IMG/VR virus record: IMGVR_UViG_3300005077_000007
Coordinates: 15,249 to 79,248 of that record
DNA: 64,000 nucleotides
Direction: 5' to 3' (one strand)
From: a virus
Made by a program: the position numbers and the translations under genes. The notes beneath the pieces were generated by a model. That model worked only from the letters and a program-made list of their open reading frames with translations, was not told the DNA's origin and made no database searches. Positions within the stretch are counted from its first letter, which is position 1, and every line of letters starts with the position of its first letter. Of the stretch, positions 9,922 through 63,747 are shown in pieces.

Positions 9922-12900
9922 TATTGAACCCCCGCTCTCGTTCTTACCCTCGGCATCCCACTACGCTCTACTTTTGATACCTTTGCAGGAATATTTTTAC
10001 CATCAATATTCACATATACATTGATATTACTACCATTCCCAATTGATGTATTCAAGTCATCGATTGCTTTTAATAACTTATCCTCCTGCTCTGGCGCACG
10101 AACCGTTTCCTGACCGTCCATGACCATTACCCGAGGGGCGTTCCTTGGGCCAGATATCCTTACATATGACGGCGTCTGCGCACGCTCCTGGAATTTCACA
10201 TTCCCTTGGTCGATAAATCCAGTCCCAACTCCGAACATGGAACCAAGCGAAGAAATTGCTGGATAAATAGGGGCGGCAATTCTATTAAGATCCCGTTGCG
10301 CCTCGACCGCTATATTGGAAGCTTGAATGAGCATTTTTGTGGCCTGCTGACTCTTTCCAGCCGCAAAAAGTTCTGCTACATCCGCAAACATAACTCCAAC
10401 TTCGGTAATTCGTTTTCCAAAAACGCTATCCTTACTCATTAAGCGTTCGTTAATGCTTTTCGTGATTCCATCAACGAATGTTTCGCCAAGCCTCTGTCCA
10501 GCAGTAGACATATCGCCAGTCTTTATAACTGTCTGAAAATATTCCCCAAAAGACTGGAAAGTTTCGTTCACTTTCTCAATGGCTCTTTCTAATTTCTGAA
10601 AATGTATCATACCATCGTTCGCAACAGCCACCAATGATAGCTGTGCCTCATCAGCGGCTTTTGGCACCTTATTGAGCGCCATAATAGCCTGGGTTGCTAT
10701 TCCGCGCATATAATCAAGCGACCCTGATGTCGAAAAAATCGCCGGATCGACCTGACGCCGACCTCCCATTGACTGATTTTTCCTAGCTCCCAAAAGTGCG
10801 CTTTCTATAGTAAATTCACCACCCTTTTTCTTTCCAAAATATGGCAGAAATTGTGGAGCCATTTTATTTAAATATTCTACTGAATCTTCAGCAGAAAGAC
10901 CAAGGGCAGTAAAGTTATTCACCAACGCATTCACAGCCTGATTCGGAGAATACGCACCAAGCCCAGGCGATCTACCAGCGGGGAAAGTTCTCCCAAAAAT
11001 AGCCCCCAACTCCCTAGCGCGTGGAGTAATTGCTGATTGAATTGCTGGATTTACTGGATACCACGGACCACCCTCCATCCCAAATAGGCGAGTATTAATA
11101 CGACCCTTTCCCCCGGATGTCATCGTCGGAAGTCCTACGTTACCAAAGAAATCCCCAAACCATTTTCCAAGAAAATGCTCAGTCATCTTTGGTTTAAACA
11201 TCCCAGCAAGCTTCATGATAAATTGATTCGGGTCGAGTAATGCAACCAATGGTTCAGGTAGTCTACCAATTGGTTCGTTTAGGAACCCCATTGGTCCAGC
11301 CTTCATGGCTGCTCTTCTGATACTTTCCTCAGTCTGGAACGGAGCATTTCTCATCTTTTTTAATACTTTACTAGCCTCTATGGCCTGGTAAATACTCATA
11401 AGTGCCGCCACGACCCATCCAACAACCGGAACAGCGCCACTCACTGTAGAAACCCCAGCGGCGGCAGATGTCGTTGCTGCCGTAGTTGCGCCAGCAGTTC
11501 CCGCCGTTCCTGCGGCAACACCAGCCGGAATAGCGGATGTCACCGCTCCGCCAGCAACCGACATCCCGTATGAAGCCGCCTGAGTTGCTGGGATAGCCCC
11601 AGCGGCTACCGCACTGCCACTACCAGTTAGGCTTCCTAATATTCCACCTAGCCCAACCTTTCCGGCAATAGCCGATATCCCAGCGCCAATCTTATCCGTA
11701 AGGCCAAATCCCTGCAATAATCCACTCGTATTTCCAGCGCCAATACCAAGTAACTTAAATATTCCACCACCAATTTTTGTTCCAGCAATAGCCTTACCAA
11801 TTCCAGTACCAGTAAATTTCCCTAATAATCCGGTAATACCTCCGGAGATTTTTCCACCAAATCCACCAAATTTATCACCCAATATATTGCCTAAAAATCC
11901 TCCACTATCTTGCCCACCAACAAACTGATTAATAAGATTACTAGCTGGTTGCGATTCACCAAGAGATGGCATACGGATAAGATCAGAAATATCCATGTTG
12001 GTATTGACCGGAGCCATGACGGTACCAATGCCCTGCTGCGGTGATGAAGGGGTTGGCGTAGCCGCTCCCGCGCCGGAAGATGATCCACCAAAAATTTGAT
12101 CGAATAATCCGCCAAATCCACCAGAAAAATCTCCCTTAAAAATCTTTCCAATATTCTCTCCAGCCTTATCGGCACCCTGCTTTGTTATACCAGGAAGCCA
12201 CTCAAGGAAGTTTTTCTCAATTTTCTTATCCCATCCAATCTTTTCTTTTAATGTGTAATCTAGGGATTGTCTAAAAATATCCAACGCAGTTGATTTAAAA
12301 GCGCTCTGAAAGACATCACCAAGATTTTGCGTTCCAGATGCTAGTCCCTCAATGGCTGTTCCAACCTGATTGTTCAAAACATCGCCAAGGGAAATAAATT
12401 CACCACGAAGCTCTCGTATCTTGAGTATCTGACGTTCAAGCTCATCTATTCTTTGCCATTCTGCTGCTTTCTTTTCTTCGCTAGCTTGAGCAATTCCAAC
12501 TTCTTTTTTCGCTAAATCAAGCTCTGATCGCTTCTGCGCCAACTCCGCTTCGAGCTTGTCCGTATTATCCGATGCTGTCTCAAGGCTTAATCTTCCCTTA
12601 CTTGTTTCTAGTGCCGCCAGAAGAGCCGCCCTCCTAGCCCGAGCTTGCAATACCTCCCCTTCCTTATCCAGCATTACGCCCTCAGCCCTTTTTTGTTCAA
12701 TCACGAACGGCAGTGTTGCCGATTTGATTGCTTTTTGAACCTCTGATGATGGTAGTCCTTTATCTACGGCAATCTTTGCTTCGATACCTTTTTTTTCGGT
12801 AACAGCCTGAGTAGTATAGTCAAATGCTTCCTTAGCTATCCTTGCCGCATCCTCACGAACGGCAATCTCTTTATCTGCAATTTCGATTTGCTTTGCTAGG

Positions 12901-15900
12901 CTGTTCGCCTCTAGCGCGTAAATCTGCCGTGTGATATCCAGCCGCTGCTGAACAAGGCTTACGGTCGTCTTTGCTCCATCAACCGCCACCTGCGCGGCGT
13001 CTCTTTCTTTTGTAGCTATTTCTATTTTCCTATCATCATTTCTTCTCTCAAGAATATGACGATGACCAATGATATCTGAGATTTCCTCTTCTACGGCCCT
13101 TTTTTCAACTAATCTTGGTGTTCGCGGAAGTGAATCAATCCTCAATGCCTCTAGTTCGCGCTCCTTCTTTTGCTGAAGTGCGCGAAGGTCTGTCGTTGCC
13201 CCCTGGTCTCCAATTATGGCACGCTCAATTGGGACAATCTGCGACTGAATACCGATAATCTTTATCTGCGTAAGAAGTTGAAGCCTCTTATCTTCTACCG
13301 CTTTTAATTCCTTTTGTATGCGTAACCGTGCTATTAGTATTTCATTCTGGGCTGCGAGAAGATCGCCCTCTGCTCGGAGACGGTTAGCTCTCTGTTGGTC
13401 AAGATAGTTATCTGCCGATCTCATCTCAAATCTTTTCTTCAACTCGCCATGTAGTATTTCTAATGAATATGGGACTAGTCCAGTAGCCCCCAGCATGGAT
13501 CTTTCGAATATCTTGGCAATTCTTAGCGACATTTTTTTCAAAGTTAGATTATTCAACGCAACGGCCTGATCCCTTGTATCGTCTAATATGCTTTTCAGTT
13601 CAGCTTGCTCAACGATCAACTGCCTCTTGGCCTCTCTGCTGTTTTGAGCCGCCGCCTCGGCCTGTTCGCTGGATAAAAAGCGTCCACCAAAGGTCCGACC
13701 TTTCGCCGCCTCGGCCTCTTGCTTTTCTGGTAAGAATTGCGCAGAAAGGAACCTTATTCGTTGAAATGCATATAGAGCTTTCTGGTAGGTTGCCCCCTGC
13801 TTTATGTCATCGTTACCAAAAAATGGATTTGTTAATTCTGGCGTAACGTCGCCATATGGTGTAATGGTAAAACCGGGACGAGTGGCTTTTCCGCGTAGTT
13901 TCTCATCCGCCTCTAGCTTAACCTGCTTTTCTGGTAAAATATCCGGTTCTCTAAAGATTCGCTCATTCGCTCTTGACTTTTCAGAAAGACGCCTTTGTAT
14001 ATCTTTTGATACCCCATACCCAGTTCCACCGCCTATTATTGATCCTATTGCTCCCCCTATCCCGATGCTTATGCCACCAGTAAATGGAGCTAGTATTCCT
14101 CCAATGATACTTCCGATTGTACCGCCAAGCACAAGGCCGGTTCCACTGGCAACCATATTTGGAAGGCCACCTATCCCCGGTATATCCATTTCGGCAATCT
14201 TTTGTATAACGATGAGCAAGCCGGTAGCAGCGCGCCAGGCGCCTTTGATTATTTCCGCAAGCGTGAGAAAGGTATTCTCGAGATTTAACATTCTTTCTGG
14301 ACTTTTTGTGATTGCCGCCAATTCGCCACGTATTGATTTTATTCCTGATTTTAACGATTCCATTGCCGATTCGGTCGTTAAATAAATTATCGATTGATAG
14401 GTGCTTAATAGTGAATTTAATAAACCTTGATATGTATGAACGTTATCTTCTAAGGTAATATAAATACCTTTCAGGAGTTCGTTAAGATATGGACCAAGAT
14501 TTCCCTTACGGGTCTGCTCTCTAATTGATGATTCTGTCAATCCAAGGACGTTACCAAGGATCGTTCTTCCAACGTTTAATCCAGTAAAAATATCTCGCAC
14601 GTCCCTGGCGAGTACGTTAAATGGAACTTGTAAGCGTTGCGCAAGTACGGTTAAATTTTCGATAATTGGTATTGAATCTTTTAACGAAATACCAGCGGAT
14701 CGCGCTGATCCGGCCGTTACCGCAAAGGCTTGCGTCACATGGGAAACCGGTAACCCTAAAGCAATCGAATCTTTTACGAGGGTTTTCATGGCTACGGTCG
14801 ATTGTGTATACGCAGACCGAACCTGATCGTAAATTTTTAACCCTATTCCGGTTTCCTTAACCGTCCGTGGGGCCGTTCTTCCACCAGCGGTAATATTTCC
14901 CGCAACGGTTAGAGTTTCGGCAACGGCTAGACGTTTTTGTTCAAAATCGGATGCAATTTTCGTGATCGAAGCAAATGCTCTAACAATTCCGCGTATGGAA
15001 CGCCAAATAACAAAGAGATTGATTAATTGATGACGAACCTGAGAGAGAGAGTCGGCGATCCCACCTCTTACCGTATCGGCATCCCGAACCGCTTTATCAA
15101 GACCATCGATTGGTGACCTTGTATCCCGTGCTCTACGAGCGCGGCGGTCTGATCGATCGCGCCTGCGCTGTTCCCGCTCCGTCCCTCGACCCCTCTCCCA
15201 CGGATGTTCCCATTCGCCCTCATGATCCCATGTGCCCTCCGCTCGTCTATATCCGCTTGCTCCATATTCTAATAATAGTGGCCTACGGCGCCTTGGGGGT
15301 TCTTCGTAGGGAGTAAAACCAGAACCTCCCCCACTACCGTCCCTAGCCATGCGCTGCCTTTCTATTTCCTCTCTCCGTTCTCGTCTCCTTCTGTGAATTC
15401 CACGAATCCACCCCAATGGTCCAACCACCTGACCTGGCGATGTCCCAGCTAATTCAAAGTTTTGACCGTATATATCAGGAAGCATAATCGGATCATTAGG
15501 GTTTTGCATATTGCCCCTAAGTATTCCACGAAATCTCTCACCCCACCCCCTAAGCATACTCGAGGGTCTCCACGTTCCGGTTATTGGTGCTTGAGATAAA
15601 GTAGGACCAGTACCGGCCATTGCGAAGTTTTGACCGTATAGAGCGGGGATCCTCGCCTCTGCTTCGCCATGCAGTAATCCACGATATCTTTGCACCCAAT
15701 TCCTTATGAAGTCCTTGGGTTTCCATGATCCAGTCATCGGAACTTGCGATAACGTTGGGCCAGCCGCGCCAGTTACAAAGCCTTGACCCAATAGGGCTGG
15801 CAAAAGCATGGGGTCATATGCACTACCAACCCCTCGCCGTGGAATTTGTGGAATAATGGTTGGGCCAGTTCCAGCCATTATGAAATTTTGACCGTATAGG

Positions 15901-18413
15901 GCCGGTAGATTCCTACGCGCCCTTTCTTCTTCATATTCCCGCTCACGAGCTTCCTTATAAGCTTTATATCGTTTTGTTTTTATTCTAAGAAACGATATAG
16001 CGGGAGTTTTATTGGATTGAGGTTCCCATACACCAAATATTCGACTTAACGTCTCTGAGGACTTACCTAATGTGAAGTTCACATCACTCTGGATTGGTTG
16101 AGCCATTAGTCTAGGAATAGGTACTAAGGCCCTGCTTGGGTCTAATGGTGGTACAACACGCCTTCTCTCTCTTTCTTTTTGGGCATAGCCTAGTTCAAAA
16201 AAGGGCTTTAATTCACCAGCCCCGCGCATCGAGAACGCACTCTTCTGATCCTCACCAAATGGACCGAATATATATTCCTTGAGGAAATTTTCCCTTTTCC
16301 CCCTTCTTGATCTTGGATCTATCCAACCTAATGGATGTGCGTTCTTTTTTCCTAAGAAATTCTTAGCGTACTCTTGTTTTTTATTAAATTTATCTATCTG
16401 TGCTTGACTCATTAATCCTTCCCTATAGGCCCAATACGCTAAGTGTGAATAATCTTTTTCCCAGGGATATTCTGTTAATCCCGATGCCTTTATGGCGGAT
16501 AGTAAATTATCAAAAAAATCTAAACGATGAGTGTTTCTATTTATTTCATCCCTTCTTTCCGCAGTAGAGGTACGAGGAGGCCCCCCTATCATTTTTGCAT
16601 CTGGCCCAAATAAACCCCATTCTGCTGCTTTTTTTTGCATATATATATGCCCTGGATCTTTATTTAGGGCCTGTAGATGGTGCGCAAACTCATGAACTAG
16701 TAATGATTTTTCTATGTGGGTTCTACCTTTTGTAGCTTTAGCACCAAGGTATGGTTTTACGTGTATACGTCCACCCCCATAACTAGCGCGACTACCGGTT
16801 GGTGAGGAATTCCATGTTAATATTGGCTCATCTATTCTGCTCCAGCCGGTCGCTTTAGTCATTTTTTCTATCAACTCTTCCGCTCCTTGTCTATTAAGCC
16901 GTTCACCAGAATATTCCTCTGGTATCCGTAAAGTATAACGAGCATCTGTTAGTTGATTAGAACCGGTCACCGGAATTCTCTGCGCTCTTTCCGCGAGGAT
17001 TCTTTGCCCTCGCCTTGATCCCGCAGCTACACCTCCAAGCGGAGGGGATTTTCTAGATCCCCTCTCTGTTTCTAATCTTTGAGCTGTGTTGAAATATTCA
17101 ATTTGATCGCCAGTAAGCAATTTATCTCTATGTGCCCAATACGTCAGTTGTGGATATTCCATAGCCCACGCATACGGAGCCTTCACGGCATTAGTTTTAC
17201 GCGCAGCATGAATTACCCAACGTAAAATTTGATAAAAATCGCTGCGATGCCCAACGACATTAGGGTCCGTATCCGCAGGAACCCCCTTTCGTCTCTGATA
17301 AGCACCATATGTATTTAAAATCCATTGAAGTTCGTGTGCGTACTCATGAAGTACGGTTGATGAATTCGCACGAAGCCTTCTTCTCCCTAAGGCTCTACCT
17401 AATCTCCCTGCGGTACTGATCGTTGGAGCTACGTGAATATTTCCTGGCTCATGCCATGCGTCCGTTAGTCCATAAAGTAATCGGTTTTCCCATGTTAACT
17501 TCGGTGGAGGAGAAGTAATATTGAATTTATTTGCTAAGAATCGATGCACTTTATCAATGATTGCCCGAGCCTGTCTTTCGCTAACCCTATCGCCAGTTAC
17601 ATATTTCTGCGTGTATGGCGTATCTATTAAAGTCTCCTCCTTCATGATTGCCCCTAACCTACCAAACCCACCTCGATTCATACGCACTGCCGGAAGTGAA
17701 ACTTCACGGCGATGCGGGATCATGAGACGTGGGGCAACTGGAGGCATCCCGGAGAACCCTATCATTAACGGCGTCTGCCGTGACGGGGAAGGGCGGTGCT
17801 GCGGCCGTCCTATCGACACGCCAGTTCTATTATAAAATGCTATCTCATCAGAGAGTTTTTTTGCCTCCTGAGGACTAATCCCCATACCTATTGCGGCATT
17901 TATGTATTCGGCTCTTGAGTATTGCCTATTTGGTGTAGTATGACTGATTAATGGACGGCTTGGGGTAATGTTACGCGCAGTATGAAAACCACCGCCAGCA
18001 CTAACGCCCTGTCGTATTGCGTTGCTCAATCGGAGCATCGAGCGCATGATGCGTTCGACACCGGCAAGCGCCTTTTCCATTGCTTGGAATTGTGCTGGAT
18101 TAGTAAAAGAGCGTATAGAACGTTCTAGCCGTGACGAAACCGAAGAGATTCGCGTCAATCTTTCAAGAAGCGGGTTCGTTGATGATATGGACGGAAGGGT
18201 ATTTCGTGGGGATAAAAGCGAAGATGGGCCACCAAGGCGGGCCTGGATACGATCGAGCGTTCCAGCCAGCGATGCGCGACCCATCCTGCGAGAAACTTCA
18301 TTAAGAACTTCTGGAAGTTTGCGAAATCGTGCCTCAAGTTTCTCGAGTTTACCCTCGGTTTGCCTTATATCTGTCTCGAGAATTATCTTGATTTTACGAG
18401 TATCTTCGCTCAC
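9921..18413 (-). CDS. Tail tape measure protein (2830 aa) with two N-terminal HEXXH metallopeptidase-like domains
   Basis: Very long ORF right after the tail chaperones. Helical Ala/Lys/Glu coiled-coil and Gly/Ile-rich hydrophobic segments. HEYAH at 17334-17348 and HEFAH at about 16680-16694. Confidence 0.9.
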   Translation of the reverse strand: MSEDTRKIKIILETDIRQTEGKLEKLEARFRKLPEVLNEVSRRMGRASLAGTLDRIQARLGGPSSLLSPRNTLPSISSTNPLLERLTRISSVSSRLERSIRSFTNPAQFQAMEKALAGVERIMRSMLRLSNAIRQGVSAGGGFHTARNITPSRPLISHTTPNRQYSRAEYINAAIGMGISPQEAKKLSDEIAFYNRTGVSIGRPQHRPSPSRQTPLMIGFSGMPPVAPRLMIPHRREVSLPAVRMNRGGFGRLGAIMKEETLIDTPYTQKYVTGDRVSERQARAIIDKVHRFLANKFNITSPPPKLTWENRLLYGLTDAWHEPGNIHVAPTISTAGRLGRALGRRRLRANSSTVLHEYAHELQWILNTYGAYQRRKGVPADTDPNVVGHRSDFYQILRWVIHAARKTNAVKAPYAWAMEYPQLTYWAHRDKLLTGDQIEYFNTAQRLETERGSRKSPPLGGVAAGSRRGQRILAERAQRIPVTGSNQLTDARYTLRIPEEYSGERLNRQGAEELIEKMTKATGWSRIDEPILTWNSSPTGSRASYGGGRIHVKPYLGAKATKGRTHIEKSLLVHEFAHHLQALNKDPGHIYMQKKAAEWGLFGPDAKMIGGPPRTSTAERRDEINRNTHRLDFFDNLLSAIKASGLTEYPWEKDYSHLAYWAYREGLMSQAQIDKFNKKQEYAKNFLGKKNAHPLGWIDPRSRRGKRENFLKEYIFGPFGEDQKSAFSMRGAGELKPFFELGYAQKERERRRVVPPLDPSRALVPIPRLMAQPIQSDVNFTLGKSSETLSRIFGVWEPQSNKTPAISFLRIKTKRYKAYKEAREREYEEERARRNLPALYGQNFIMAGTGPTIIPQIPRRGVGSAYDPMLLPALLGQGFVTGAAGPTLSQVPMTGSWKPKDFIRNWVQRYRGLLHGEAEARIPALYGQNFAMAGTGPTLSQAPITGTWRPSSMLRGWGERFRGILRGNMQNPNDPIMLPDIYGQNFELAGTSPGQVVGPLGWIRGIHRRRRERREEIERQRMARDGSGGGSGFTPYEEPPRRRRPLLLEYGASGYRRAEGTWDHEGEWEHPWERGRGTEREQRRRDRSDRRARRARDTRSPIDGLDKAVRDADTVRGGIADSLSQVRHQLINLFVIWRSIRGIVRAFASITKIASDFEQKRLAVAETLTVAGNITAGGRTAPRTVKETGIGLKIYDQVRSAYTQSTVAMKTLVKDSIALGLPVSHVTQAFAVTAGSARSAGISLKDSIPIIENLTVLAQRLQVPFNVLARDVRDIFTGLNVGRTILGNVLGLTESSIREQTRKGNLGPYLNELLKGIYITLEDNVHTYQGLLNSLLSTYQSIIYLTTESAMESLKSGIKSIRGELAAITKSPERMLNLENTFLTLAEIIKGAWRAATGLLIVIQKIAEMDIPGIGGLPNMVASGTGLVLGGTIGSIIGGILAPFTGGISIGIGGAIGSIIGGGTGYGVSKDIQRRLSEKSRANERIFREPDILPEKQVKLEADEKLRGKATRPGFTITPYGDVTPELTNPFFGNDDIKQGATYQKALYAFQRIRFLSAQFLPEKQEAEAAKGRTFGGRFLSSEQAEAAAQNSREAKRQLIVEQAELKSILDDTRDQAVALNNLTLKKMSLRIAKIFERSMLGATGLVPYSLEILHGELKKRFEMRSADNYLDQQRANRLRAEGDLLAAQNEILIARLRIQKELKAVEDKRLQLLTQIKIIGIQSQIVPIERAIIGDQGATTDLRALQQKKERELEALRIDSLPRTPRLVEKRAVEEEISDIIGHRHILERRNDDRKIEIATKERDAAQVAVDGAKTTVSLVQQRLDITRQIYALEANSLAKQIEIADKEIAVREDAARIAKEAFDYTTQAVTEKKGIEAKIAVDKGLPSSEVQKAIKSATLPFVIEQKRAEGVMLDKEGEVLQARARRAALLAALETSKGRLSLETASDNTDKLEAELAQKRSELDLAKKEVGIAQASEEKKAAEWQRIDELERQILKIRELRGEFISLGDVLNNQVGTAIEGLASGTQNLGDVFQSAFKSTALDIFRQSLDYTLKEKIGWDKKIEKNFLEWLPGITKQGADKAGENIGKIFKGDFSGGFGGLFDQIFGGSSSGAGAATPTPSSPQQGIGTVMAPVNTNMDISDLIRMPSLGESQPASNLINQFVGGQDSGGFLGNILGDKFGGFGGKISGGITGLLGKFTGTGIGKAIAGTKIGGGIFKLLGIGAGNTSGLLQGFGLTDKIGAGISAIAGKVGLGGILGSLTGSGSAVAAGAIPATQAASYGMSVAGGAVTSAIPAGVAAGTAGTAGATTAATTSAAAGVSTVSGAVPVVGWVVAALMSIYQAIEASKVLKKMRNAPFQTEESIRRAAMKAGPMGFLNEPIGRLPEPLVALLDPNQFIMKLAGMFKPKMTEHFLGKWFGDFFGNVGLPTMTSGGKGRINTRLFGMEGGPWYPVNPAIQSAITPRARELGAIFGRTFPAGRSPGLGAYSPNQAVNALVNNFTALGLSAEDSVEYLNKMAPQFLPYFGKKKGGEFTIESALLGARKNQSMGGRRQVDPAIFSTSGSLDYMRGIATQAIMALNKVPKAADEAQLSLVAVANDGMIHFQKLERAIEKVNETFQSFGEYFQTVIKTGDMSTAGQRLGETFVDGITKSINERLMSKDSVFGKRITEVGVMFADVAELFAAGKSQQATKMLIQASNIAVEAQRDLNRIAAPIYPAISSLGSMFGVGTGFIDQGNVKFQERAQTPSYVRISGPRNAPRVMVMDGQETVRAPEQEDKLLKAIDDLNTSIGNGSNINVYVNIDGKNIPAKVSKVERSGMPRVRTRAGVQ

Positions 18414-30958: not shown

Positions 30959-33493
30959 TTACGTTCGTCTACGCGCTAGCCTTATTATTTGTCCTCCTAT
31001 CTCATCGTAATCAGGTATGCAACTCGTTGCCCCAAGAACGGCCATCGAAAATGCGATCAATGTATCAATTTTTTTATTCTTATTATCTTTAATGAAACGC
31101 CTTCCACGACCTGGGACTTCTTTAATGGACACCATCATGGCCTCATTCCTTAAATCATCATCTGGAATAATGATAATATTCCCCTCTGATAACTTATCAA
31201 GAAAATTTTCCGTCATCTTAATGGTATTCGGTTGCGTCTGTGGATAAGGAACCATTGGCAACCCCCTTTCTCGTAGCCTCTGAGCCGATGACTCCATTTG
31301 CCACGGATCATAATATACAATTGCCAAAAAGAATTGCTTATTGAGTTCGAGTAGATATTTCTCTATTGTACGCTCGAAGTTGAGTGGATCTTCTTTTGTA
31401 GGTTGCCAGACTTGATATGGACCTTGCCAAATTTTGCCATGACGGCGGAAAGCTGAGACGACTGCGGCTCGGTCTTTCACTAGCGAAGCGTCGATACCAA
31501 CAGCTAATGAAAGATCTCGTGAGGGCGAAATCGGCGCAAAGTATTGATTTTCTTTTGCGAAATCCACACATCGATCCCAAAAGCGCATATCCATCCCTTC
31601 TTCTGCTTCCACCCACTCATTTCGATGAATTCTACGAAATGCGCTTAGTCGAAAACCGGGTTGATTAATCTGTTCATGGTAATATTTTGCATCTTGCCAG
31701 GGCATCCTAGGCTCGTGATCCCAATAGCAATTTCGCACTAAAACATTTCCAGAGAAAAAATTATGAGCTTCTTCGACATCAACACAATACGCCCACCTTG
31801 CGGGGCCGTCATGCGGTGGTGCCCCATGTTCGATTATGGCCCTCGCGGCGTCCTGGGTAGATTTTCCGAGGTTCCAGCTATTTTCATCAAATTCGGGAGC
31901 TTTGTCGGCAAGCTTATATCTCATTGATTGTGGCACAAGGTGACCAATTTTTTGTGATAAATAAGTTAAGCCAATTGGTGATATATGAATTATACACCCA
32001 CTCCCGCCGTAACGTTTATATTCTCTTACGTGACACTTTATCCCATATTCAACTAATTTTTGACATAAGTATTCACAATCAATTCTACTAAAAGACTGCG
32101 TATAAATCACCGCAGCCCCGTGGTTTGACCTTGATCCATCATCTAAATACCAGGCCGCAAGAAGCTCCGGGGACATATATCGAGATACGAGATCGTATGG
32201 AACTATTTTCTTTTTATTCGAATAAAACATTTCTCTTAAATTCAACAACGCCTGGCTCGATCGAGATTCAAAATTTATCGCACCATCCATGCTCCTAATC
32301 CACCTTGATCCGTTCTGCCCAATACGGTCCAGGGCGATGGTTTTTAAAAATATCCACTCGATTTGCCCCTTGTGGTGTATCATCCTCAATTCGGTACGAT
32401 AAGCTGACTCACTTGTCAAGTGAGCATCCCCCAATAGTGTTCCAACAATAAGTGCCATTTGTTTCTCATTTGGAGCATCTTTTTTCGTTAAGATTAAGTC
32501 ACCGTTACGTAAATTATCCGCACGAACTTTTCCGTTTGGAGTAAAAATTTCGTGATCGTTCGTAACCCATGTTCCAGTTCGTCTATATCGACCATTCTCG
32601 TAACCAACTCTCATGTAATATCGATTACCCAACTTAGTCCTATACCACCCCACTATGGGTCTTTCCTCGAATTTTCCATCAATCATGCATATGACCTTTT
32701 TATCTATTTTCTCATTTACGACCTTGCTTATGCGCATGCGTGTACCATCAGCAAATTGCACTGATGATCTTGGGTGTAGGCAAATCGAGTCACCACTGGC
32801 ATAAACTGGCAATTGCGTCAATTCTCCAGTTTCCGTGTTTTTATATTTTCCTAGATCAATGAGATTTTCTGGACGAACTATTCGCTTATATATATCTTCC
32901 AATAGCTCCGACTCCCCAACGAAGCCAGCGTACGTTGTAATAACCCGCATTGCGTTTTCCCTGGTAGGTGGTGGAGTCATTTCATCAAATAATCGTCTCG
33001 CCCCCTCACTCGTGAAGCCCCACAACTCATCAAACAACGAGAGGTTTGGATTTGACCCTGCCGCTCCGGCGTAGTCGCTACTAATCGCCTGAACCATCGT
33101 ACCATCTTTCAATATAATATGCTTGATATGAACATCGCTACAAGCTTCCAATAAAACCGGATTACTCTCTATGCATCTCTTGAGATCACGATACCCGCGC
33201 GATTGCGATTGCTCCAGATCGTTCGCAAGGTAATAAATCTCCCCGTTTCTTCCACAAATTCCAGAAAACGCAAACCAGGCTGCGATCATTGCCCCTATTG
33301 ATGTTTTTCCACTTTTTTTCCCACACGACCATACAAACTGCCGATAGGGGAGAATTCCATTTTTGTTCGGGGTAAGTGCGTGCTCCAGGATGGCCTTCTG
33401 GTGTGGCATTAGCTGGACTAATTTGCCATTTGGTAATATGAATATTCTTTCTAAGAATGGGACGATGGGGACTATCTTCTTCTCTTGACTCAT
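30959..33493 (-). CDS. terL: Terminase large subunit containing an intein
   Basis: Walker A GKKSGKT, Walker B SLFDE, nuclease IGIDAS and KKIDTLIA; position at the head of the morphogenesis operon. Confidence 0.92.
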   Translation of the reverse strand: MSQEKKIVPIVPFLERIFILPNGKLVQLMPHQKAILEHALTPNKNGILPYRQFVWSCGKKSGKTSIGAMIAAWFAFSGICGRNGEIYYLANDLEQSQSRGYRDLKRCIESNPVLLEACSDVHIKHIILKDGTMVQAISSDYAGAAGSNPNLSLFDELWGFTSEGARRLFDEMTPPPTRENAMRVITTYAGFVGESELLEDIYKRIVRPENLIDLGKYKNTETGELTQLPVYASGDSICLHPRSSVQFADGTRMRISKVVNEKIDKKVICMIDGKFEERPIVGWYRTKLGNRYYMRVGYENGRYRRTGTWVTNDHEIFTPNGKVRADNLRNGDLILTKKDAPNEKQMALIVGTLLGDAHLTSESAYRTELRMIHHKGQIEWIFLKTIALDRIGQNGSRWIRSMDGAINFESRSSQALLNLREMFYSNKKKIVPYDLVSRYMSPELLAAWYLDDGSRSNHGAAVIYTQSFSRIDCEYLCQKLVEYGIKCHVREYKRYGGSGCIIHISPIGLTYLSQKIGHLVPQSMRYKLADKAPEFDENSWNLGKSTQDAARAIIEHGAPPHDGPARWAYCVDVEEAHNFFSGNVLVRNCYWDHEPRMPWQDAKYYHEQINQPGFRLSAFRRIHRNEWVEAEEGMDMRFWDRCVDFAKENQYFAPISPSRDLSLAVGIDASLVKDRAAVVSAFRRHGKIWQGPYQVWQPTKEDPLNFERTIEKYLLELNKQFFLAIVYYDPWQMESSAQRLRERGLPMVPYPQTQPNTIKMTENFLDKLSEGNIIIIPDDDLRNEAMMVSIKEVPGRGRRFIKDNKNKKIDTLIAFSMAVLGATSCIPDYDEIGGQIIRLARRRT
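31730..32782 (-). mobile_element. Intein (351 aa) with LAGLIDADG homing endonuclease in TerL
   Basis: Starts CLHPRSSV, ends HNFFSGNVLVRN followed by Cys(+1); GTLLGDAH and LAAWYLDDG motifs. Confidence 0.9.
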
Positions 33494-33520
33494 AACACGT
33501 TCCCTGCTATAATAGCCTTG

Positions 33521-33703
33521 ATGCAAATAAATCTCGACGTATCCTGCCCCGAGTGCCGTACCGGAAAAGTCGAAGCAATTGGACGAGCATTCATTAAGGA
33601 TGAATTATCACTTATCCTTTGGAGATGTCAAGTATGTCAGCACGAGTTTTCTCTCGGAATAAACTACTCTTCAGTGATAGTGAAGGAGGAGATCGTTCAT
33701 TAA
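33521..33703 (+). CDS. Small Cys4 zinc-ribbon protein
   Basis: CPEC-x23-CQVC; overlaps the 5' end of the primase. Confidence 0.5.
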   Translation: MQINLDVSCPECRTGKVEAIGRAFIKDELSLILWRCQVCQHEFSLGINYSSVIVKEEIVH

Positions 33704-43357: not shown

Positions 43358-45322
43358 ATGCAGTTACCAACGGTCGTATCGTTATTTTCTGGTATTGGGG
43401 CCTTTGACCTTGCGGCACAAAGGGCTGGGTTCAAAACGGTTGCGTTTTCGGAGATATGCCCATTTGCAATTCGAGTATTCAAGCGTCATTGGCCCAATGC
43501 TATTGGGTTAGGCGATATTCGGCTCCTGCACGGCCAAGCGATTTGTGAAATAGCGGGTCGTGTCGATGTGATGACGGCGGGATTTCCGTGCTTTACCGCT
43601 GGGCATCTCGTCCTGACGGAACGAGGATACGCACCGATAGAATCGCTCTCGGTCGGGGACCGAGTTGTCACGCATCGTGGTCGATTACGACCAATTGTCC
43701 GTGTTGGTTCGGCGATTAAGCCTGTTGGGCTGCTGAAAGGTAGTGGAATCCGGGTCGGGCATACGGTCACGCTTGACCATCCATATCTGGCTGTCGATTG
43801 GCGTATGCAGAGCACGCGGAGACAAAACAAGGCTATACGCATCGAACACGTCGGAAATGAGCAGTGGGTAGCGGCGTCCGAAATGGTGGGAAAGCAGTGG
43901 TGCGCCCTTACCGAGTATCAACCCGTCGAAGCAGGTAGCCCAACGCCACGGCTTACGCCTCGGCAGGCAATGTTACTTGCGGGGATGTACTTGGGCGATG
44001 GCTGGGTGGGTGGGTATCGAACGAAACGGAAAAAGGTCGTCCTTCTGGCCCTCAATGACCGCAAGTATGAATTCTTTCTCGCACACTTCCCCGGAGTGCC
44101 GCACTTCCGAACGAACGACCGTACCTGTCGAAAAACTATTCTTTGCGATACCAACCTGGCGGAATGGTTGATCGACCAGTTTGGTAAGGGGGCGGCAAAT
44201 AAGCGCATTCCCGCATGGGTGCTCGGGCACCCTGACCGCGATGCCCTGATGCAGGGATACGTCGCTACGGATGGATGCTTCAAGGGCAAGGGCGCGGGTG
44301 TGTCGATTACGACGATTTCTTCGGCGCTTGCTTTTGGGTTCTGTGATCTCTCGGTATCGCTCGGTTTCGTCGCGTCATGTAACGTGCATAACGTAGGGCC
44401 GATGAAGGTGATCGAGGGCCGAACGGTGAACCAACGTCCATTTTGGACGGCACTTGCCATTCCACGCTGGAAGTCGATCAGATCGCGCGTGTATCACGGG
44501 AAACTCTTGCGGGGCATTAGGTCATTCACGCCGTGCGGCGAACGCACGGTTTATAACATCGAGGTCGCCGACGATCATAGCTATGTTGTCCAGGGCGCTA
44601 TTGTTCATAACTGTCAAGATATATCTGTGGCCGGAAAACGATTAGGGTTGGATGGTGGGAATCGTAGTGTATTATTCTACGAGATTATGCGTCTCGTAAG
44701 GGAGATGACAACATATGGGCAGCCGCCAAGGTTCCTTGTTCTCGAAAATGTCCCAGCCCTTCTCTTCAGCGGAGGGGGGAAAGACTTCAGTAGCATTATC
44801 AACTCGATACGAAAATGCGGGGCGCTTGACATTGCGTGGAGAGTTCTGGACGGTCGATATGCCGGAGTACCTCAACAAAGACGACGACTGTTCATTGTCG
44901 CAGATTTTAGAAAAGAATGTGCCGGAAAAGTTCTTTTTGACCAAAATCAGGTGTTTGGGGATCATGAAAGCCATACAAATAAGAAAAAAATCTCCACCGA
45001 AGATCGTATGGAGCGCCTTGTTGAACAAGACGGAACAGTGACGACTTTATGGCCGCGAATAGCAAAAACCTGCACGCGCCGCGACTATAAAGGCCCTCGC
45101 AACGAGGAAATGCAGTGTACGATTGTCATGCACCACGTCAATGACGACAAAGAATGGTATACGATTCGTCGTTTAACGCCAACAGAATTCGCTCGACTCA
45201 TGGGATTTCCGGATGATTGGATCACGGAAGAGAGTGATACAAAAATGTATCAATTATATGGAAACTCTGCCGTTGTTCCATTATTAGAGCAAATCTTTAC
45301 CAGAATTCATATGGAATTATAA
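43358..45322 (+). CDS. C5 cytosine DNA methyltransferase containing an intein
   Basis: Motif I LFSGIG, IV GFP|CQD, VI LENV, VIII QQRRR, X LYGNS. Confidence 0.92.
   Translation: MQLPTVVSLFSGIGAFDLAAQRAGFKTVAFSEICPFAIRVFKRHWPNAIGLGDIRLLHGQAICEIAGRVDVMTAGFPCFTAGHLVLTERGYAPIESLSVGDRVVTHRGRLRPIVRVGSAIKPVGLLKGSGIRVGHTVTLDHPYLAVDWRMQSTRRQNKAIRIEHVGNEQWVAASEMVGKQWCALTEYQPVEAGSPTPRLTPRQAMLLAGMYLGDGWVGGYRTKRKKVVLLALNDRKYEFFLAHFPGVPHFRTNDRTCRKTILCDTNLAEWLIDQFGKGAANKRIPAWVLGHPDRDALMQGYVATDGCFKGKGAGVSITTISSALAFGFCDLSVSLGFVASCNVHNVGPMKVIEGRTVNQRPFWTALAIPRWKSIRSRVYHGKLLRGIRSFTPCGERTVYNIEVADDHSYVVQGAIVHNCQDISVAGKRLGLDGGNRSVLFYEIMRLVREMTTYGQPPRFLVLENVPALLFSGGGKDFSSIINSIRKCGALDIAWRVLDGRYAGVPQQRRRLFIVADFRKECAGKVLFDQNQVFGDHESHTNKKKISTEDRMERLVEQDGTVTTLWPRIAKTCTRRDYKGPRNEEMQCTIVMHHVNDDKEWYTIRRLTPTEFARLMGFPDDWITEESDTKMYQLYGNSAVVPLLEQIFTRIHMEL
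43589..44611 (+). mobile_element. Intein (341 aa) with LAGLIDADG homing endonuclease at the MTase catalytic PC motif
   Basis: Starts CFTAGHLV, ends YNIEVADDHSYVVQGAIVHN then CQD; GMYLGDG and GYVATDG motifs; visibly GC-richer than its flanks. Confidence 0.92.
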
Positions 45323-55260: not shown

Positions 55261-55276
55261 AGCAAGTAGCGTGCCA
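55261..55276 (-). promoter_or_regulatory. Sigma-54 (-24/-12) promoter, leftward
   Basis: TGGCACG-CTAC-TTGCT, full consensus. Confidence 0.7.
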
Positions 55277-55457: not shown

Positions 55458-55473
55458 TGGCACGCCGCTTGCA
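55458..55473 (+). promoter_or_regulatory. Sigma-54 (-24/-12) promoter, rightward
   Basis: TGGCACG-CCGC-TTGCA, about 80 nt before the ATG at 55556. Confidence 0.8.
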
Positions 55474-58704: not shown

Positions 58705-58935
58705 ATGAAGATTTGCGGCTGTTACCCTGATGAAATTTGCGATTGCGTCGAACGGCGCGATTGCGAAAAGGCCGGAACGATGGGGCATAAATTCTGTGGC
58801 CCATGCGTCCATAATCCGCAATTGCCCAAATTCATGTGTGGCGATTGCTGCAAAACGGATAACCTTATGGAAGTGTTATTCCATGAGGAGGTTATGGCCG
58901 AACTTAGGGAAAAGTTTCCCGAGGATTTGGAATAA
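58705..58935 (+). CDS. Cys-rich small protein
   Basis: Ten Cys residues; coupled stop and start. Confidence 0.5.
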   Translation: MKICGCYPDEICDCVERRDCEKAGTMGHKFCGPCVHNPQLPKFMCGDCCKTDNLMEVLFHEEVMAELREKFPEDLE

Positions 58936-59381
58936 TGCAATTCCAAGATTGGAAAACTGCGAGAAATTATATTCTCGCTGGACATGGAACGATAACCGTT
59001 TGTTCCAAAAAGACTGGACAGCGGTTTACGTTCAAATGCGGGATGCCGAAAGAAAAAACGACATTCTCGCCTATCTTTGTTAAGGTTTTGACCGGAACGG
59101 ATAATGAATCCGATTATTCGTTCCTTGGAACCTTGTTTCCCGAAACGCCAACCTATCCAGAATCAACATTTCGGCTTTCCCCTAAGTCTCGAATCTCGAA
59201 AGATTCCCCTTCAGCCGTCGCGGCGGTTTGGTTTTTTACCGCTGTGGCGAAAGATAAAGATATTCTCGAATCCGCCACCGTATATCATTCCGGTCAGTGC
59301 GGCCGTTGCGGCCGTAAACTTACTGTACCGGAATCAATCGAATCCGGAATTGGGCCGGAGTGTGCGAAAAAGCAAAACTAA
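58935..59381 (+). CDS. DUF6011-like zinc-finger protein
   Basis: CGRCGRKLTVPESIESGIGPEC. Confidence 0.7.
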   Translation: MQFQDWKTARNYILAGHGTITVCSKKTGQRFTFKCGMPKEKTTFSPIFVKVLTGTDNESDYSFLGTLFPETPTYPESTFRLSPKSRISKDSPSAVAAVWFFTAVAKDKDILESATVYHSGQCGRCGRKLTVPESIESGIGPECAKKQN

Positions 59382-59613: not shown

Positions 59614-59676
59614 ACAACAACGATTGGAAGGCGTAATTGATTCTAGTCATGACTGACCTGGGTAAAAAACAATTTG

Positions 59677-59713
59677 GGGTGGCGCATGGGAAACCATGCG
59701 CTATCCCATTTGT
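59677..59713 (+). terminator. Terminator hairpin with GAAA tetraloop
   Basis: GGGTGGCGCATGG-GAAA-CCATGCGCTATCC then ATTTGTT. Confidence 0.7.
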
Positions 59714-59859: not shown

Positions 59860-59956
59860 TCCGCAGACCGTGTGGCCGGCGGAAAATTGGCGTTAAAAAG
59901 TTGACGTTCGCAGACATTTCGGCGAGAAAACGGCCGATTTGCAAGCGGATATCATG

Positions 59957-59972
59957 TGGCACGCTACTTGCA
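59957..59972 (+). promoter_or_regulatory. Sigma-54 (-24/-12) promoter
   Basis: TGGCACG-CTAC-TTGCA, about 77 nt before the ATG at 60049. Confidence 0.8.
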
Positions 59973-60048
59973 TACTAGGATGGTTCGGCATTGTTGCGTC
60001 AAATGCTTGGGATTTGTTCCCAACGAAACGAAAGGTCAAAATAAGGGA

Positions 60049-61827
60049 ATGAAAACGCAAAAAGCCATCGGTACTAACCGGTTAAAGCAAAGTTTGCAGT
60101 ACGCCACTATGTGGGCGCCGTGCGCTGTCCCCGATTTCGTTACATTCGACTCGCCGAGCGACGAAATCGCGCAAACGTTTTTCGTCGATACCCAAAGTTC
60201 CGGGGATAAAGTTTTTGGGCGTCCATGCCCAAAGAACCCTAGGCATGGATTCGTCGAATCCCGTGTATTGAATACATGGGAAGAGGCAGTTTCGTTGCTG
60301 GAAGAAACTCTCGCCGCCGACCCAGACGGCGAGGTTATGTTAATTTCAGCAATAGAATCAAAGTTTTCAGCCGTAGTCTCTGATCGGATTACGGTTGGAA
60401 TAAACAATGACGGCGCGACAGCGGGTTATGGAAACCCGCTGGAAATTTATACAAATGGCGTAGCCCGTTCTCCGTGGTTTGATGACGTTGGCATCCCGGA
60501 AGGGAACGCCGCTTTTCTGGAATTTGTTTATGGCCGCAAGAATCGTTACGGTTCGCAAACGCGAACATATGCGGTGCAATGCCGAGCCGGTGAGCATCTG
60601 CCGCGCAAACCTGATGCTATCTTTGAGGATATGGTTATCACGCAAATCCTCGAACCATTGCCAAAGGAAAACCCTGAAGCAATGCCCGAGTGGGAACGGC
60701 GTATGCAATCGCTTCCAAGGGATAAAACGGGAATTGCCGTTTACGTCGAGGAAGGTTCCCTTTCATCCCATGCGGCCGTACAGGCAATTAAGCATGGGGT
60801 TCGAGCCGTTTTCACAACTCGTAAGCCAAAAATCGGCGAGGCGATTGTGAAAAATGAAGAAGAATCGGTAGACCTACACAACGATATTATGCGTGGAATG
60901 GGATATTCCACGATAACGTCGGAATCGGACGGGTATCTATTCGATATCCGTGCCGGATTGATTATAGCACTTATGGGTGCTCACAACGCGAATTATATTA
61001 CGAAAACCCCAGAGGGTGCTTTTCTTTTCGGGGTTGGCGTAATGACTACGATTCGGGCGGCGGCGACCGCCTGTTTCGGTGAATTTCGACATTGGAAACG
61101 AATCGCCCGTACCGATTTTGCCAATATGGCGGGTCGGTCCCGAGATTCGATTTTCGATAGGGTTAGGCCCTGGGAAATCACGCTTTTGGTTACCGCATTA
61201 CGGCAGGCTGGGAAGGCCTTTCATTCTAAAGGCTGGAATCAGTCGTATGGTGGCAAGGCATGGTATAATTGTTACCTTGCTACCGTTGATTTGGCGGCAG
61301 CAACGAGCGAGTATCAGGATTCGCCTACTACGGCAAATCTCGCAAAGGTTGTCGGAAAATTGCACATTCTGTTCAATACTTGCCACAATGGCGGGCCGGT
61401 ATTGACAAAGTTCCTTGACGTTACTCTTTTCGATTACTTCGCAAAGGGCAACGTGAAAGCTAACGCCAACGCCATTGCGGCGATTTTCGTTTTGCTTGAC
61501 AGGCTCGATTACTTTCGTCCCGAATCACACCTTCGATGCGAAGCGGTTCGGAAGTATTGGCGGGTTGAGCAATCGTTGAAGTATCGGGTTCGGTTGTCGT
61601 GGACGTATAATTCCGACAAGGATAAGTACGACTACGCCGCAGTTGTATACGCGAAATTCGGCGCTACGATTGTTAAGTCGTATATACTGTGGAATAACGC
61701 CGCCCTTATCGCGGCGTTACATAAGATGCCAAATCCGTCAAAAGGAAAGATCGTGAAGAATAAATATGGGGTTTTGATTTTTGGGAATGAAATCATCGGA
61801 ACAGTAAAAGGATTATTTGGAGAATGA
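60049..61827 (+). CDS. Dikinase-like protein: ATP-grasp-like N-terminus, phosphohistidine swivel domain, unknown C-terminal domain
   Basis: QKAIG..VPDF and FGRPCP..GFVESR resemble the PPDK/PEPS N-terminus; GSLSSHAA..AIKHGV is the PEP-utiliser mobile motif (His codon 60769). Confidence 0.65.
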   Translation: MKTQKAIGTNRLKQSLQYATMWAPCAVPDFVTFDSPSDEIAQTFFVDTQSSGDKVFGRPCPKNPRHGFVESRVLNTWEEAVSLLEETLAADPDGEVMLISAIESKFSAVVSDRITVGINNDGATAGYGNPLEIYTNGVARSPWFDDVGIPEGNAAFLEFVYGRKNRYGSQTRTYAVQCRAGEHLPRKPDAIFEDMVITQILEPLPKENPEAMPEWERRMQSLPRDKTGIAVYVEEGSLSSHAAVQAIKHGVRAVFTTRKPKIGEAIVKNEEESVDLHNDIMRGMGYSTITSESDGYLFDIRAGLIIALMGAHNANYITKTPEGAFLFGVGVMTTIRAAATACFGEFRHWKRIARTDFANMAGRSRDSIFDRVRPWEITLLVTALRQAGKAFHSKGWNQSYGGKAWYNCYLATVDLAAATSEYQDSPTTANLAKVVGKLHILFNTCHNGGPVLTKFLDVTLFDYFAKGNVKANANAIAAIFVLLDRLDYFRPESHLRCEAVRKYWRVEQSLKYRVRLSWTYNSDKDKYDYAAVVYAKFGATIVKSYILWNNAALIAALHKMPNPSKGKIVKNKYGVLIFGNEIIGTVKGLFGE

Positions 61828-62441
61828 CCTTGATTCCAGAAGTAGAGGCGAATGAAACGATAATACGGCAAATTATGAGAGAGAGATTTGATCCGAAGCC
61901 GTATATTCCGTTTTGCAACCATCTACCGAGGATGCTATTCACGGTAAACGGAACGGATTTGTATATCGGACACCGGACGGAATCGGTATTCGATAACTTT
62001 AACCTCAATCTCATTATTGATTGCAGTAATGAGAAGAGGTATGATCCTGACGATGGATTCTTTGGTGGAAACTTTGCGTTTCCAAGGATGGAAGAATACG
62101 TGATTCCACGTCCAAAGGTTTTGACAATGGCGTGGCACGATTTTCATGTGCCACCGATAGGTATAAAATTCTGGTATGCCCTGGTAAAAGAAATTAAAGG
62201 TCAATCCGTCGCAATTGTTTGCAGTGGCGGGCACGGGCGAAGCGGAACGGCTCTCGCCTGTGTTCTTGCGGCAATGGGAATTCGAAATCCAGTTCAACTT
62301 ATCCGTAACCACTACTGCAAAAAGGCGGTAGAAACGACGGCGCAAGAAAATTATGTAAACAACGTATTGAAATTTGCACCGAAAAAGGCAAGACCGACGC
62401 TCGTGATACATGAGATTCAAAACACGCAACGTCTACCATAA
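61824..62441 (+). CDS. Protein-tyrosine/dual-specificity phosphatase (CX5R)
   Basis: WHDFHVP acid loop, VCSGGHGRSGT, VETTAQ. Confidence 0.85.
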   Translation: MTLIPEVEANETIIRQIMRERFDPKPYIPFCNHLPRMLFTVNGTDLYIGHRTESVFDNFNLNLIIDCSNEKRYDPDDGFFGGNFAFPRMEEYVIPRPKVLTMAWHDFHVPPIGIKFWYALVKEIKGQSVAIVCSGGHGRSGTALACVLAAMGIRNPVQLIRNHYCKKAVETTAQENYVNNVLKFAPKKARPTLVIHEIQNTQRLP

Positions 62442-63291: not shown

Positions 63292-63747
63292 TTGATGAAT
63301 AGAATTGAAAAGATCATCAGGAAACGTCTCCTCAAGTCTGGTTATAACCAGAAAGAGATTGATATTATTATGGGGGTGCCAATTCCCATTGAAAATATCG
63401 GCGTAACCCATATTACGAGTTTTGGGTTTCGGTATGGCAAGCCAGTGGAAAAGGGAGCGATGATTATCGACGTGCGGACGCATTTTAAGCGTAACCCGTA
63501 CCATGATCCAACGCTTCGCCATTTGCGCGGAACGGATGCTGCTGTCGCTACCGACATTTTGCAAACTCCAAACTTTGCAGAATCTTACTACCGGCTATTT
63601 CGAATGGTTGCAACATTCAATGGTCCAGTATATCTCGGATGTACTGGTGGTCATCACCGTTCTGTATATTTGGCGGAACGGATTGGTAGGGAATTGAATG
63701 TCCCAGTTTCGCATCGGGATATCGAAAGGACAAAAAATGGGATGTGA
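63292..63747 (+). CDS. Stand-alone RapZ/YhbJ C-terminal-domain protein
   Basis: SFGFRYGKP, IDVR, NPYHDPTLRHLRG, GCTGGHHRSV. Confidence 0.85.
   Translation: MMNRIEKIIRKRLLKSGYNQKEIDIIMGVPIPIENIGVTHITSFGFRYGKPVEKGAMIIDVRTHFKRNPYHDPTLRHLRGTDAAVATDILQTPNFAESYYRLFRMVATFNGPVYLGCTGGHHRSVYLAERIGRELNVPVSHRDIERTKNGM

Follow-up and report, generated by a model that had tools for sequence, protein, structure and literature searches.

The question raised by a pair of overlapping genes in a stretch of 64,000 nucleotides of viral DNA (positions 15249-79248 of IMG/VR record IMGVR_UViG_3300005077_000007, hereafter the window) is which molecule a phage would phosphorylate with a dikinase-like enzyme that lacks the usual acceptor domain and is encoded together with a phosphatase. 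The source virus record is 108,596 bp long and has direct terminal repeats. Gene A (60049-61827, plus strand) encodes a protein of 592 amino acids with an ATP-grasp domain, a swivel histidine, a helical domain designated X and a variable tail, and gene B (61824-62441, plus strand) encodes a 205-amino acid phosphatase of the protein tyrosine/dual-specificity type (PTP/DSP). On the evidence set out below, the two genes probably belong to a very large, uncharacterised phage module in which gene A is a swivelling-histidine phosphotransferase of the dikinase type and gene B a phosphatase of the same pathway, the two being coupled in translation and forming one operon of a 108.6-kb tailed phage under a sigma-54 promoter. 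The type of chemistry is already known, and what is new is the acceptor domain and the obligate phosphatase. Among phage gene families that are recognisably enzymatic but have no assigned function, the module is one of the larger, and no characterisation of a phage dikinase-plus-phosphatase pair was found in the literature.

Domain architecture of the two proteins

The alignment and the AlphaFold2 model of gene A were built on 118 sequences, and the model contains three domains, with predicted local distance difference test (pLDDT) values mostly >90 over residues 1-490 and a predicted TM-score of 0.82. The ATP-grasp nucleotide-binding domain (60049-60618, plus strand; residues 1 to ~190) carries the motifs RPCP..PRHGFVESR, NDGATAG, LEFV and VQxR, and residues R58, P59, P61, G67, S71, E95, T124, E158, Q177 and R179 are invariant in the alignment. 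The best solved match of this N-terminal domain is rifampin phosphotransferase (RPH; Foldseek E 3e-4), and comparison with VIA-align gave a Z of 11.8 to the ATP-binding domain of RPH (root-mean-square deviation 3.0 over 162 residues), followed by further ATP-grasp enzymes and then by maize pyruvate phosphate dikinase (PPDK; Z 7.2). Matches among the AlphaFold DB clusters are phosphoenolpyruvate (PEP) synthases, PPDKs and PEP-utilising mobile-domain proteins, in alignments that cover residues 3-269. The LEFV...VQxR segment (E158, Q177, R179) resembles IEFTVE...LQTR of a phage PPDK_N protein, which is a local motif likeness, and its residues may be equivalent to E323, Q335 and R337, which bind Mg/phosphate in Clostridium PPDK.

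Residues ~195-270 (60631-60858, plus strand) are modelled as an alpha/beta domain bearing H241 (codon 60769-60771) in the motif GSLSSHAAV, and this histidine is invariant in the 118 aligned relatives. In an hhalign comparison, GGFTSHAAVVARG of a bona fide phage PPDK_N/PEP-utilizers protein was aligned on GSLSSHAAVQAIK of gene A. The sole recurrent Pfam family is the PEP-utilising mobile domain PF00391, which matched 7 of 35 members in the same place with a best E of 0.016. No model in Pfam, PHROG, NCBIfam or PADLOC covers the dikinase family, NCBIfam and PADLOC returning nothing meaningful, and a Pfam scan of ten long dikinase relatives gave no match. The tail that follows domain X (61519-61824, plus strand; residues 491-592) is modelled with low confidence and is not conserved in the family.

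Gene A resembles PPDK and PEP synthase in the order of its parts (ATP-grasp, swivel histidine, acceptor domain) and in the S-S-H-A-A swivel motif. It differs from them in that the Pfam scan of its product found no PEP/pyruvate TIM-barrel domain and residues 277-490 are all-helical in the model, in a HMMER similarity that is non-significant, and in its obligate phosphatase, which PPDK and PEP synthase lack. The RPH of the 5HV1/5HV3 structures (RPH-Lm) likewise combines an ATP-grasp domain and a swivel phosphohistidine with a non-barrel acceptor domain of unique fold, but its ATP-grasp domain is much larger than the ~190 residues of gene A and it has no partner phosphatase. The histidine domain of RPH is C-terminal, with the rifampin-binding domain before it (PMC4844700), whereas that of gene A is central as in PPDK.

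Domain X (60877-61518, plus strand; residues 277-490) was predicted with a pLDDT of 92.7 when folded alone and consists of about ten helices. It is basic across the family, with a median isoelectric point of 9.26 and a median net charge of +6. Residues E345, R347, G401, W405, H446 and K454 are invariant and H348, R365, G402, N447 and G449 near-invariant, and the signature motifs are GE-x-RH, GYGG-xx-W (GG-xx-W) and HNNG...K (HNxG...K). All of these residues are located at helix ends in the model, a position compatible with one shared pocket at an end of the bundle.

No fold relative of X was found. Foldseek against the PDB returned generic helical bundles only (best E 0.12), and VIA-align against 48,161 chains gave a best Z of 6.7 (talin), which is under the noise level for helical proteins. 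The sole match among AlphaFold DB clusters was a member of the domain's own family, a fold search of the ESM Atlas gave TM values of at most 0.41 and a feature search there gave no usable match, and neither a PDB sequence search nor a word-based homologue search with the X profile gave any match. The rifampin-binding domain of RPH showed no similarity to X among the listed matches, and no RPH chain appeared among the listed matches of the X-only fold searches although 5HV1 was among the chains searched. X is, then, a domain of 210-220 residues that folds well in the model, with an invariant set of residues of catalytic appearance and no structural relative found, and its position and conservation suggest that it holds the acceptor site. 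The acceptor site of RPH contains a Lys and an Arg-Glu pair that hold the phosphohistidine and the phosphate in position (PMC4844700). E345, R347 and K454 of gene A recall this set, and the E-x-R-H/K set of X could act by analogy in the same manner.

These results bear out most of a preliminary description of the locus, which had reported a 592-amino acid protein with a PPDK/PEP synthase-like N-terminus (now an ATP-grasp fold with RPH, PEP synthase and PPDK as matches), a swivel motif GSLSSHAA (now with an invariant histidine), no pyruvate-binding barrel, and an unfamiliar domain swapped in for the substrate domain. The motifs it had singled out in that domain, SYGGKAW, CHNGG and LTKF, fall on alignment columns that are invariant or nearly so (G401, G402, W405, H446, N447 and K454), and the structure prediction and Foldseek comparison it had proposed for gene A recovered the ATP-grasp and left X without a relative. 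It had also named a CX5R phosphatase as the partner, the catalytic residues of which are intact. Its further reading, a reversible modification of a host target or metabolite early in infection, is by comparison speculative.

By analogy with PPDK, PEP synthase and RPH, the minimal ATP-grasp domain would bind ATP, H241 would attack the beta-phosphate to give pyrophosphorylhistidine and then phosphohistidine, and the swivel domain would deliver the phosphate to X. There the putative pocket (E345-x-R347-H348, R365, GG-x-x-W405, H446-N447 and K454) would hold the acceptor and transfer the phosphate to its hydroxyl. The product of gene B would be a cysteine phosphatase of the same pathway, which would either remove that phosphate, completing a cycle, or trim a further phosphate from the product.

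Gene B has its P-loop at C133-R139 (62220-62240; loop sequence VCSGGHGRSGT) and its general acid at D106 (codon 62139-62141) in a W-x-D motif. In 39 partner phosphatases D106, W117, C133, G138, R139, G141, E170 and Q174 are invariant, E170 and Q174 being part of an AVET..Q motif, and C31, H137, T142, C165 and Y177 are near-invariant. As D106, C133, R139, E170 and Q174 are all intact, gene B is predicted from its sequence to encode a hydrolysis-competent cysteine phosphatase. Its product scores 34.7 bits to the DSP-PTPase domain PF22784 (cut-off 27), and the partner-phosphatase profile matches archaeal-type PTPs in the PDB (ShufPTP and Tk-PTP, E 7e-12 to 3e-11) and also receptor PTPs, PRL, DUSP23, Cdc14 and VSP; a word-based homologue search with gene B gave no match. 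Like Tk-PTP (5Z59), ShufPTP (9E9L), SsoPTP, DUSP23/VHZ and PRL, gene B encodes a small single-domain protein with HC-x-G-G-x-G-R-S/T-G, an acid-loop Asp and AVET..Q, whereas the phage phosphatase family is set apart from them by a conserved P-loop His (GGHGR), an extra Cys pair (C31/C165) and frequent basic or Zn-ribbon extensions.

Operon layout, gene linkage and the split form

The first codon of gene B, at 61824, falls within the stop of gene A, where GGAGAATGACC contains an ATGA overlap with GGAG just 5' of it. The open reading frame (ORF) holding gene A spans 59956-61827, and the ATG at 60049 is taken as the real start because the N-terminal motif TQKAxG, shared across the family, lies from residue 3 onwards in the resulting 592-amino acid product and the upstream GTG falls within a promoter element. 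This element, TGGCACGCTACTTGCA at 59957-59972 (plus strand), lies 77 nucleotides 5' of the ATG and is an exact fit to the sigma-54 -24/-12 consensus TGGCAC-N5-TTGCW, reading TGGCAC-N5-TTGCA. Exact sigma-54 sites number three in the window against 0.03 expected, a count reached in none of 100 shuffles, and the other two are located at 55261-55276 (minus strand) and 55458-55473 (plus strand). These matches suggest that the phage may use host sigma-54 for part of its programme; promoters of this class require an activator. A strong terminator-like hairpin with a 15-bp stem and a T-rich tail (59675-59708, plus strand) closes the upstream transcription unit, so that, with the sigma-54 site behind it, genes A and B look like the start of a transcription unit of their own. 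Both the sigma-54 site ahead of gene A and the overlap of its stop with the phosphatase gene had been noticed in the preliminary description, and both are confirmed.

The family of gene A was searched for with HMMER against 1.84 billion cluster representatives and comprises at least 939 clusters at 50 % identity (E <= 0.001), or 834 at E <= 1e-10, with a conserved core at residues 50-480. Loci with a gene A relative (25-34 % identity) were fetched, 38 from IMG/VR and 6 others, and a gene B relative is present directly downstream on the same strand in 44/44, usually at a spacing of -4, -1 or 0 bases and with a small inserted gene in three loci. Both genes are found in all 38 viral records, nearly always as one copy each. 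Lack of co-occurrence had been named beforehand as one observation that would overturn the pairing, and with this result the proposed dikinase-plus-phosphatase pair holds on domain folds, invariant residues and gene linkage alike. When the genomes of 185,579 bacterial and archaeal species were scanned with a strict pattern, only four loci emerged, which makes the family essentially viral; no protein of this fused type, with X joined to the dikinase domains, was found for isolated viruses in BFVD.

In all-against-all clustering of the flanks, the relatives of A and B were the only two conserved genes. A candidate for a conserved third gene in the fused-type loci was discarded, the third cluster being an antisense shadow ORF. 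The lack of a conserved third protein in these loci bears on the idea that the dikinase phosphorylates Tyr (or Ser/Thr) of a host or phage protein docked on X and that the PTP reverses the mark. The partner does resemble PTPs of the phosphotyrosine type, having both a Q motif and an acid like that of the WPD loop, and there are precedents in that related dikinases phosphorylate phenol and the helical subdomain of Enzyme I of the phosphotransferase system (PTS) docks a protein substrate. We know of no dikinase, however, that phosphorylates a protein side chain besides its own histidine, and such a protein writer and eraser is unlikely.

Translational coupling and 1:1 stoichiometry would also suit a phosphatase that acts on the dikinase, either resetting its phospho- or pyrophosphohistidine or accepting the phosphate in a Cys-phosphate relay like that from EI to EIIB of the PTS, which passes phosphate from His to Cys. 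The conserved hydrolytic residues D106, Q174 and S/T140 argue for a hydrolase and not a carrier, extra phosphatase paralogues occur without extra dikinases, and complex prediction speaks neither for nor against the idea, so that a phosphatase devoted to its own dikinase appears quite unlikely.

A phosphotransferase and phosphatase of one pathway, as preferred here, also account for a second arrangement of the same parts in cultured siphoviruses. Vibrio phage vB_VneS_J26 has a "PPDK" (ORF98) one gene from a "PTP" (ORF100), and this split homologue is called a metabolic PPDK in the published genome (PMC12038007). The J26 "PPDK" (14495-16570 of locus L045) matches PPDK_N (1e-45) and PEP-utilizers (2e-19) with the barrel absent in Pfam, and the J26 PTP belongs to the gene B family (hhalign 97.8 %, E 1e-12, ETxxQ motif included). 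With tblastn, gene B matched 15 of 50,697 phage records, 4 of which are Manatee Spring podoviruses of the fused type. The other 11 (Stenotrophomonas DLP5/DLP3/Summit, Rhizobium RHph_Y1_11/TM16, Rhodobacter RcZahn and Vibrio KarBoss/PG28/V-YDF132/VH2_2019) all have a "PPDK" gene ~1-4 kb from the phosphatase, and the "PPDK" proteins of the split-form phages have PPDK_N and PEP-utilizers without the barrel.

The X profile matches a stand-alone gene directly after the phosphatase in Rhodobacter RcZahn (gp10, E 5.8e-11), Rhizobium RHph_Y1_11 (EVC30_142, E 5.4e-10), Stenotrophomonas DLP5 (gp142, E 5e-9) and Vibrio J26 (L045 17627-18640, E 1.9e-8), and every signature residue is retained in all four phages. 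These genes are annotated as "hypothetical protein", or as "putative membrane protein" in J26. In three of these four split-form lineages X is in turn followed by another phosphatase gene, which in DLP5 is gp143. The gene clusters of the J26/SIO-2 group, DLP5, RcZahn and RHph_Y1_11 accordingly consist of the three parts known from the window, with a phosphatase of the gene B family and with X as a separate protein. Their "PPDK" is a classical PPDK_N plus PEP-utilizers protein with a C-terminal region of its own, whereas gene A has X fused to it and a minimal, highly divergent ATP-grasp. That ATP-grasp plus swivel histidine, X and the phosphatase occur fused in one lineage but as separate genes in another is classical evidence that the parts work together.

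The domain content of both forms also bears on how these genes have been named. The PHROG label for the gene B family (phrog_17568) is "thymidylate synthase", which probably traces to the misannotated RefSeq record of phage DLP5, in which gp143 (L046 8208-8996) is deposited as ThyX and has Pfam matches to PTP/DSP families only. The deposited labels "pyruvate phosphate dikinase" and "thymidylate synthase" look wrong on domain content, and claims of auxiliary metabolic genes that follow from them need revision. An ordinary auxiliary metabolic PPDK or PEP synthase, making PEP from pyruvate, is the reading given by the GenBank annotations and for J26 (PMC12038007). It is contradicted by the domain content and is barely credible, given that neither gene A nor the phage "PPDK" proteins have a PEP/pyruvate TIM barrel, the acceptor domain is replaced by X, and an obligate phosphatase has no role in PEP synthesis.

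Candidate targets of the module

The best guess for the target of the phosphotransferase is an anionic molecule, either a nucleic acid or a nucleotide-like compound. Many partner phosphatases have K/R-rich N-terminal tails or long Zn-ribbon arrays rich in Cys (as many as 35 in 347 residues), and ten long partners gave PTP and Zn-ribbon matches only in Pfam. The dikinases also have Cys-rich extensions, which co-vary with those of the partner across 40 loci (Spearman 0.53, p 5e-4, not corrected for phylogeny). The basic X, the basic or Zn-ribbon tails and the co-varying extensions together suggest an anionic, perhaps polymeric ligand such as nucleic acid.

In the most specific form of this idea, the module would (pyro)phosphorylate and dephosphorylate a DNA or RNA hydroxyl or terminus, for instance the 5' end of an RNA, a 3' or 2' hydroxyl or a base bearing a hydroxymethyl group, in the service of host takeover, genome protection or counter-defence. 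Besides the basic X and the correlated extensions of A and B, this would agree with the location of the split module between terminase and DNA polymerase genes in siphoviruses, and RNA 5'-triphosphatases and polyphosphatases are known among enzymes of the PTP fold. However, the searches brought up no recognised nucleic-acid-binding domain, the proteins of the window are without tails, and ligase or modification genes are not co-conserved in the flanks, so that action on nucleic acid is a possibility put forward tentatively. With the same reserve, the module might be a phage-wide system that writes and edits phosphate marks on nucleic acid or another polyanion by means of dikinase chemistry, X and a PTP-fold partner; if so, it would represent a novel class of machinery by which phages take over the host or counter its defences, and the present phage would have expanded it to two dikinases and three phosphatases.

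The closest solved relative being RPH, X might instead bind a metabolite, a nucleotide signal or an antibiotic-like compound and activate or inactivate it by phosphorylation, with the phosphatase recycling or processing the product. RPH and phenylphosphate synthase are both small-molecule dikinases. The location of the conserved X residues at helix ends in the model would fit a compact E/R/H/K/W pocket, and a large unexplored group of such enzymes has been described (PMC4844700). Zn-ribbon and basic extensions on both partners would be unusual for enzymes of this kind, though, and no other metabolic genes are linked in the flanks; a small-molecule target is considered somewhat unlikely.

The strict 1:1 linkage would also fit a cycle on host glycogen or an envelope polymer, which the pair would phosphorylate and dephosphorylate so as to mobilise or remodel it. 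To our knowledge, glucan water dikinase and SEX4/LSF2/laforin are the only swivel-histidine dikinase and DSP-fold phosphatase known as obligate partners on one substrate, and they are likewise a functional pair. Their genes lie apart, they have carbohydrate-binding modules and their substrates are starch and glycogen, none of which is seen in the phage pair. No carbohydrate-binding module was found with Pfam in either protein or in the long relatives, the helical and basic X is unlike CBM20/CBM45, and no amylase or phosphorylase is linked, which makes a polysaccharide cycle very unlikely.

Several points weigh against the reading of the pair as a swivelling-histidine phosphotransferase and a phosphatase of one pathway with an anionic target. 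The gene A product alone falls below significance for PEP-utilising enzymes (PF00391, E 0.18), a PDB sequence search with the family profile gave no match, and the chemistry of gene A is argued by analogy with PPDK, PEP synthase and RPH. Domain X, having no fold relative, could be a docking or regulatory domain and not the acceptor site. A kinase and a phosphatase that act on one site would run a futile cycle unless separated in time, space or substrate state, and gene B could act at a different step, or on enzyme A itself, rather than on the mark made by A. Prediction of a complex of A(1-495) with B gave a score of 0.00, which is no verdict and evidence neither way. The signs of an anionic target are indirect, resting in part on a co-variation statistic without phylogeny correction, and in the window itself the phosphatase is without a basic tail or Zn ribbon and both proteins are without extensions. 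The split form is present in cultured phage-host pairs, which places the target within reach of ordinary genetics and biochemistry, and its identification would bring to light either a novel phosphorylated molecule of infected bacteria or a novel means of host control by phages.

A second module set and neighbouring genes

A second dikinase-X is encoded in the same virus record outside the window (5103-7292 of locus L054, minus strand) and is 32 % identical to gene A (E 7e-64) with all motifs kept. Two more intact phosphatase paralogues (8412-9521 and 9521-10381 of the same locus, plus strand) lie ~1.1 kb from it and are divergently transcribed, the whole set corresponding to about 84102-89380 of the record. 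The P-loops of these phosphatases read CVGGHGRT and CLGAHGRT, and one of the two has a lysine-rich N-terminal tail. No sigma-54 site was found near this set, and two copies of the module were seen in only one further record of the 38.

In the window, the minus strand encodes the portal, the terminase and the head proteins, and the plus strand carries the genes for replication and modification. The structural gene block includes an ORF of 2830 amino acids (9921-18413, minus strand) and an adjoining ORF of 1375 amino acids without a PHROG match. The unit just 5' of the operon contains a DUF6011 protein (58935-59381, plus strand; PF19474, 1.8e-15). A stand-alone RapZ C-terminal-domain protein with the loop CTGGHHRS (63292-63747, plus strand; PF22740, 2e-21) is encoded 850 bp 3' of the phosphatase gene. 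Genes of the RapZ-C type are located a few kb from the module in few other phages (L002, L013, L017 and L022), with 4 loci having one within 6 kb, and RapZ-C was ruled out as a third core component, being present in 3 of the 38 records and thus accessory at most.

Two further proteins of the window appear to be interrupted. The large terminase (30959-33526, minus strand; 855 amino acids) matches terminases at its two ends and a LAGLIDADG homing endonuclease in between, at residues 354-503, which suggests that the insertion is an intein. A DNA methyltransferase of 654 amino acids (43358-45322, plus strand) has split methyltransferase matches, and its residues 63-427 match a PHROG labelled anaerobic ribonucleotide reductase large subunit; this middle part may be another intein-type insertion.

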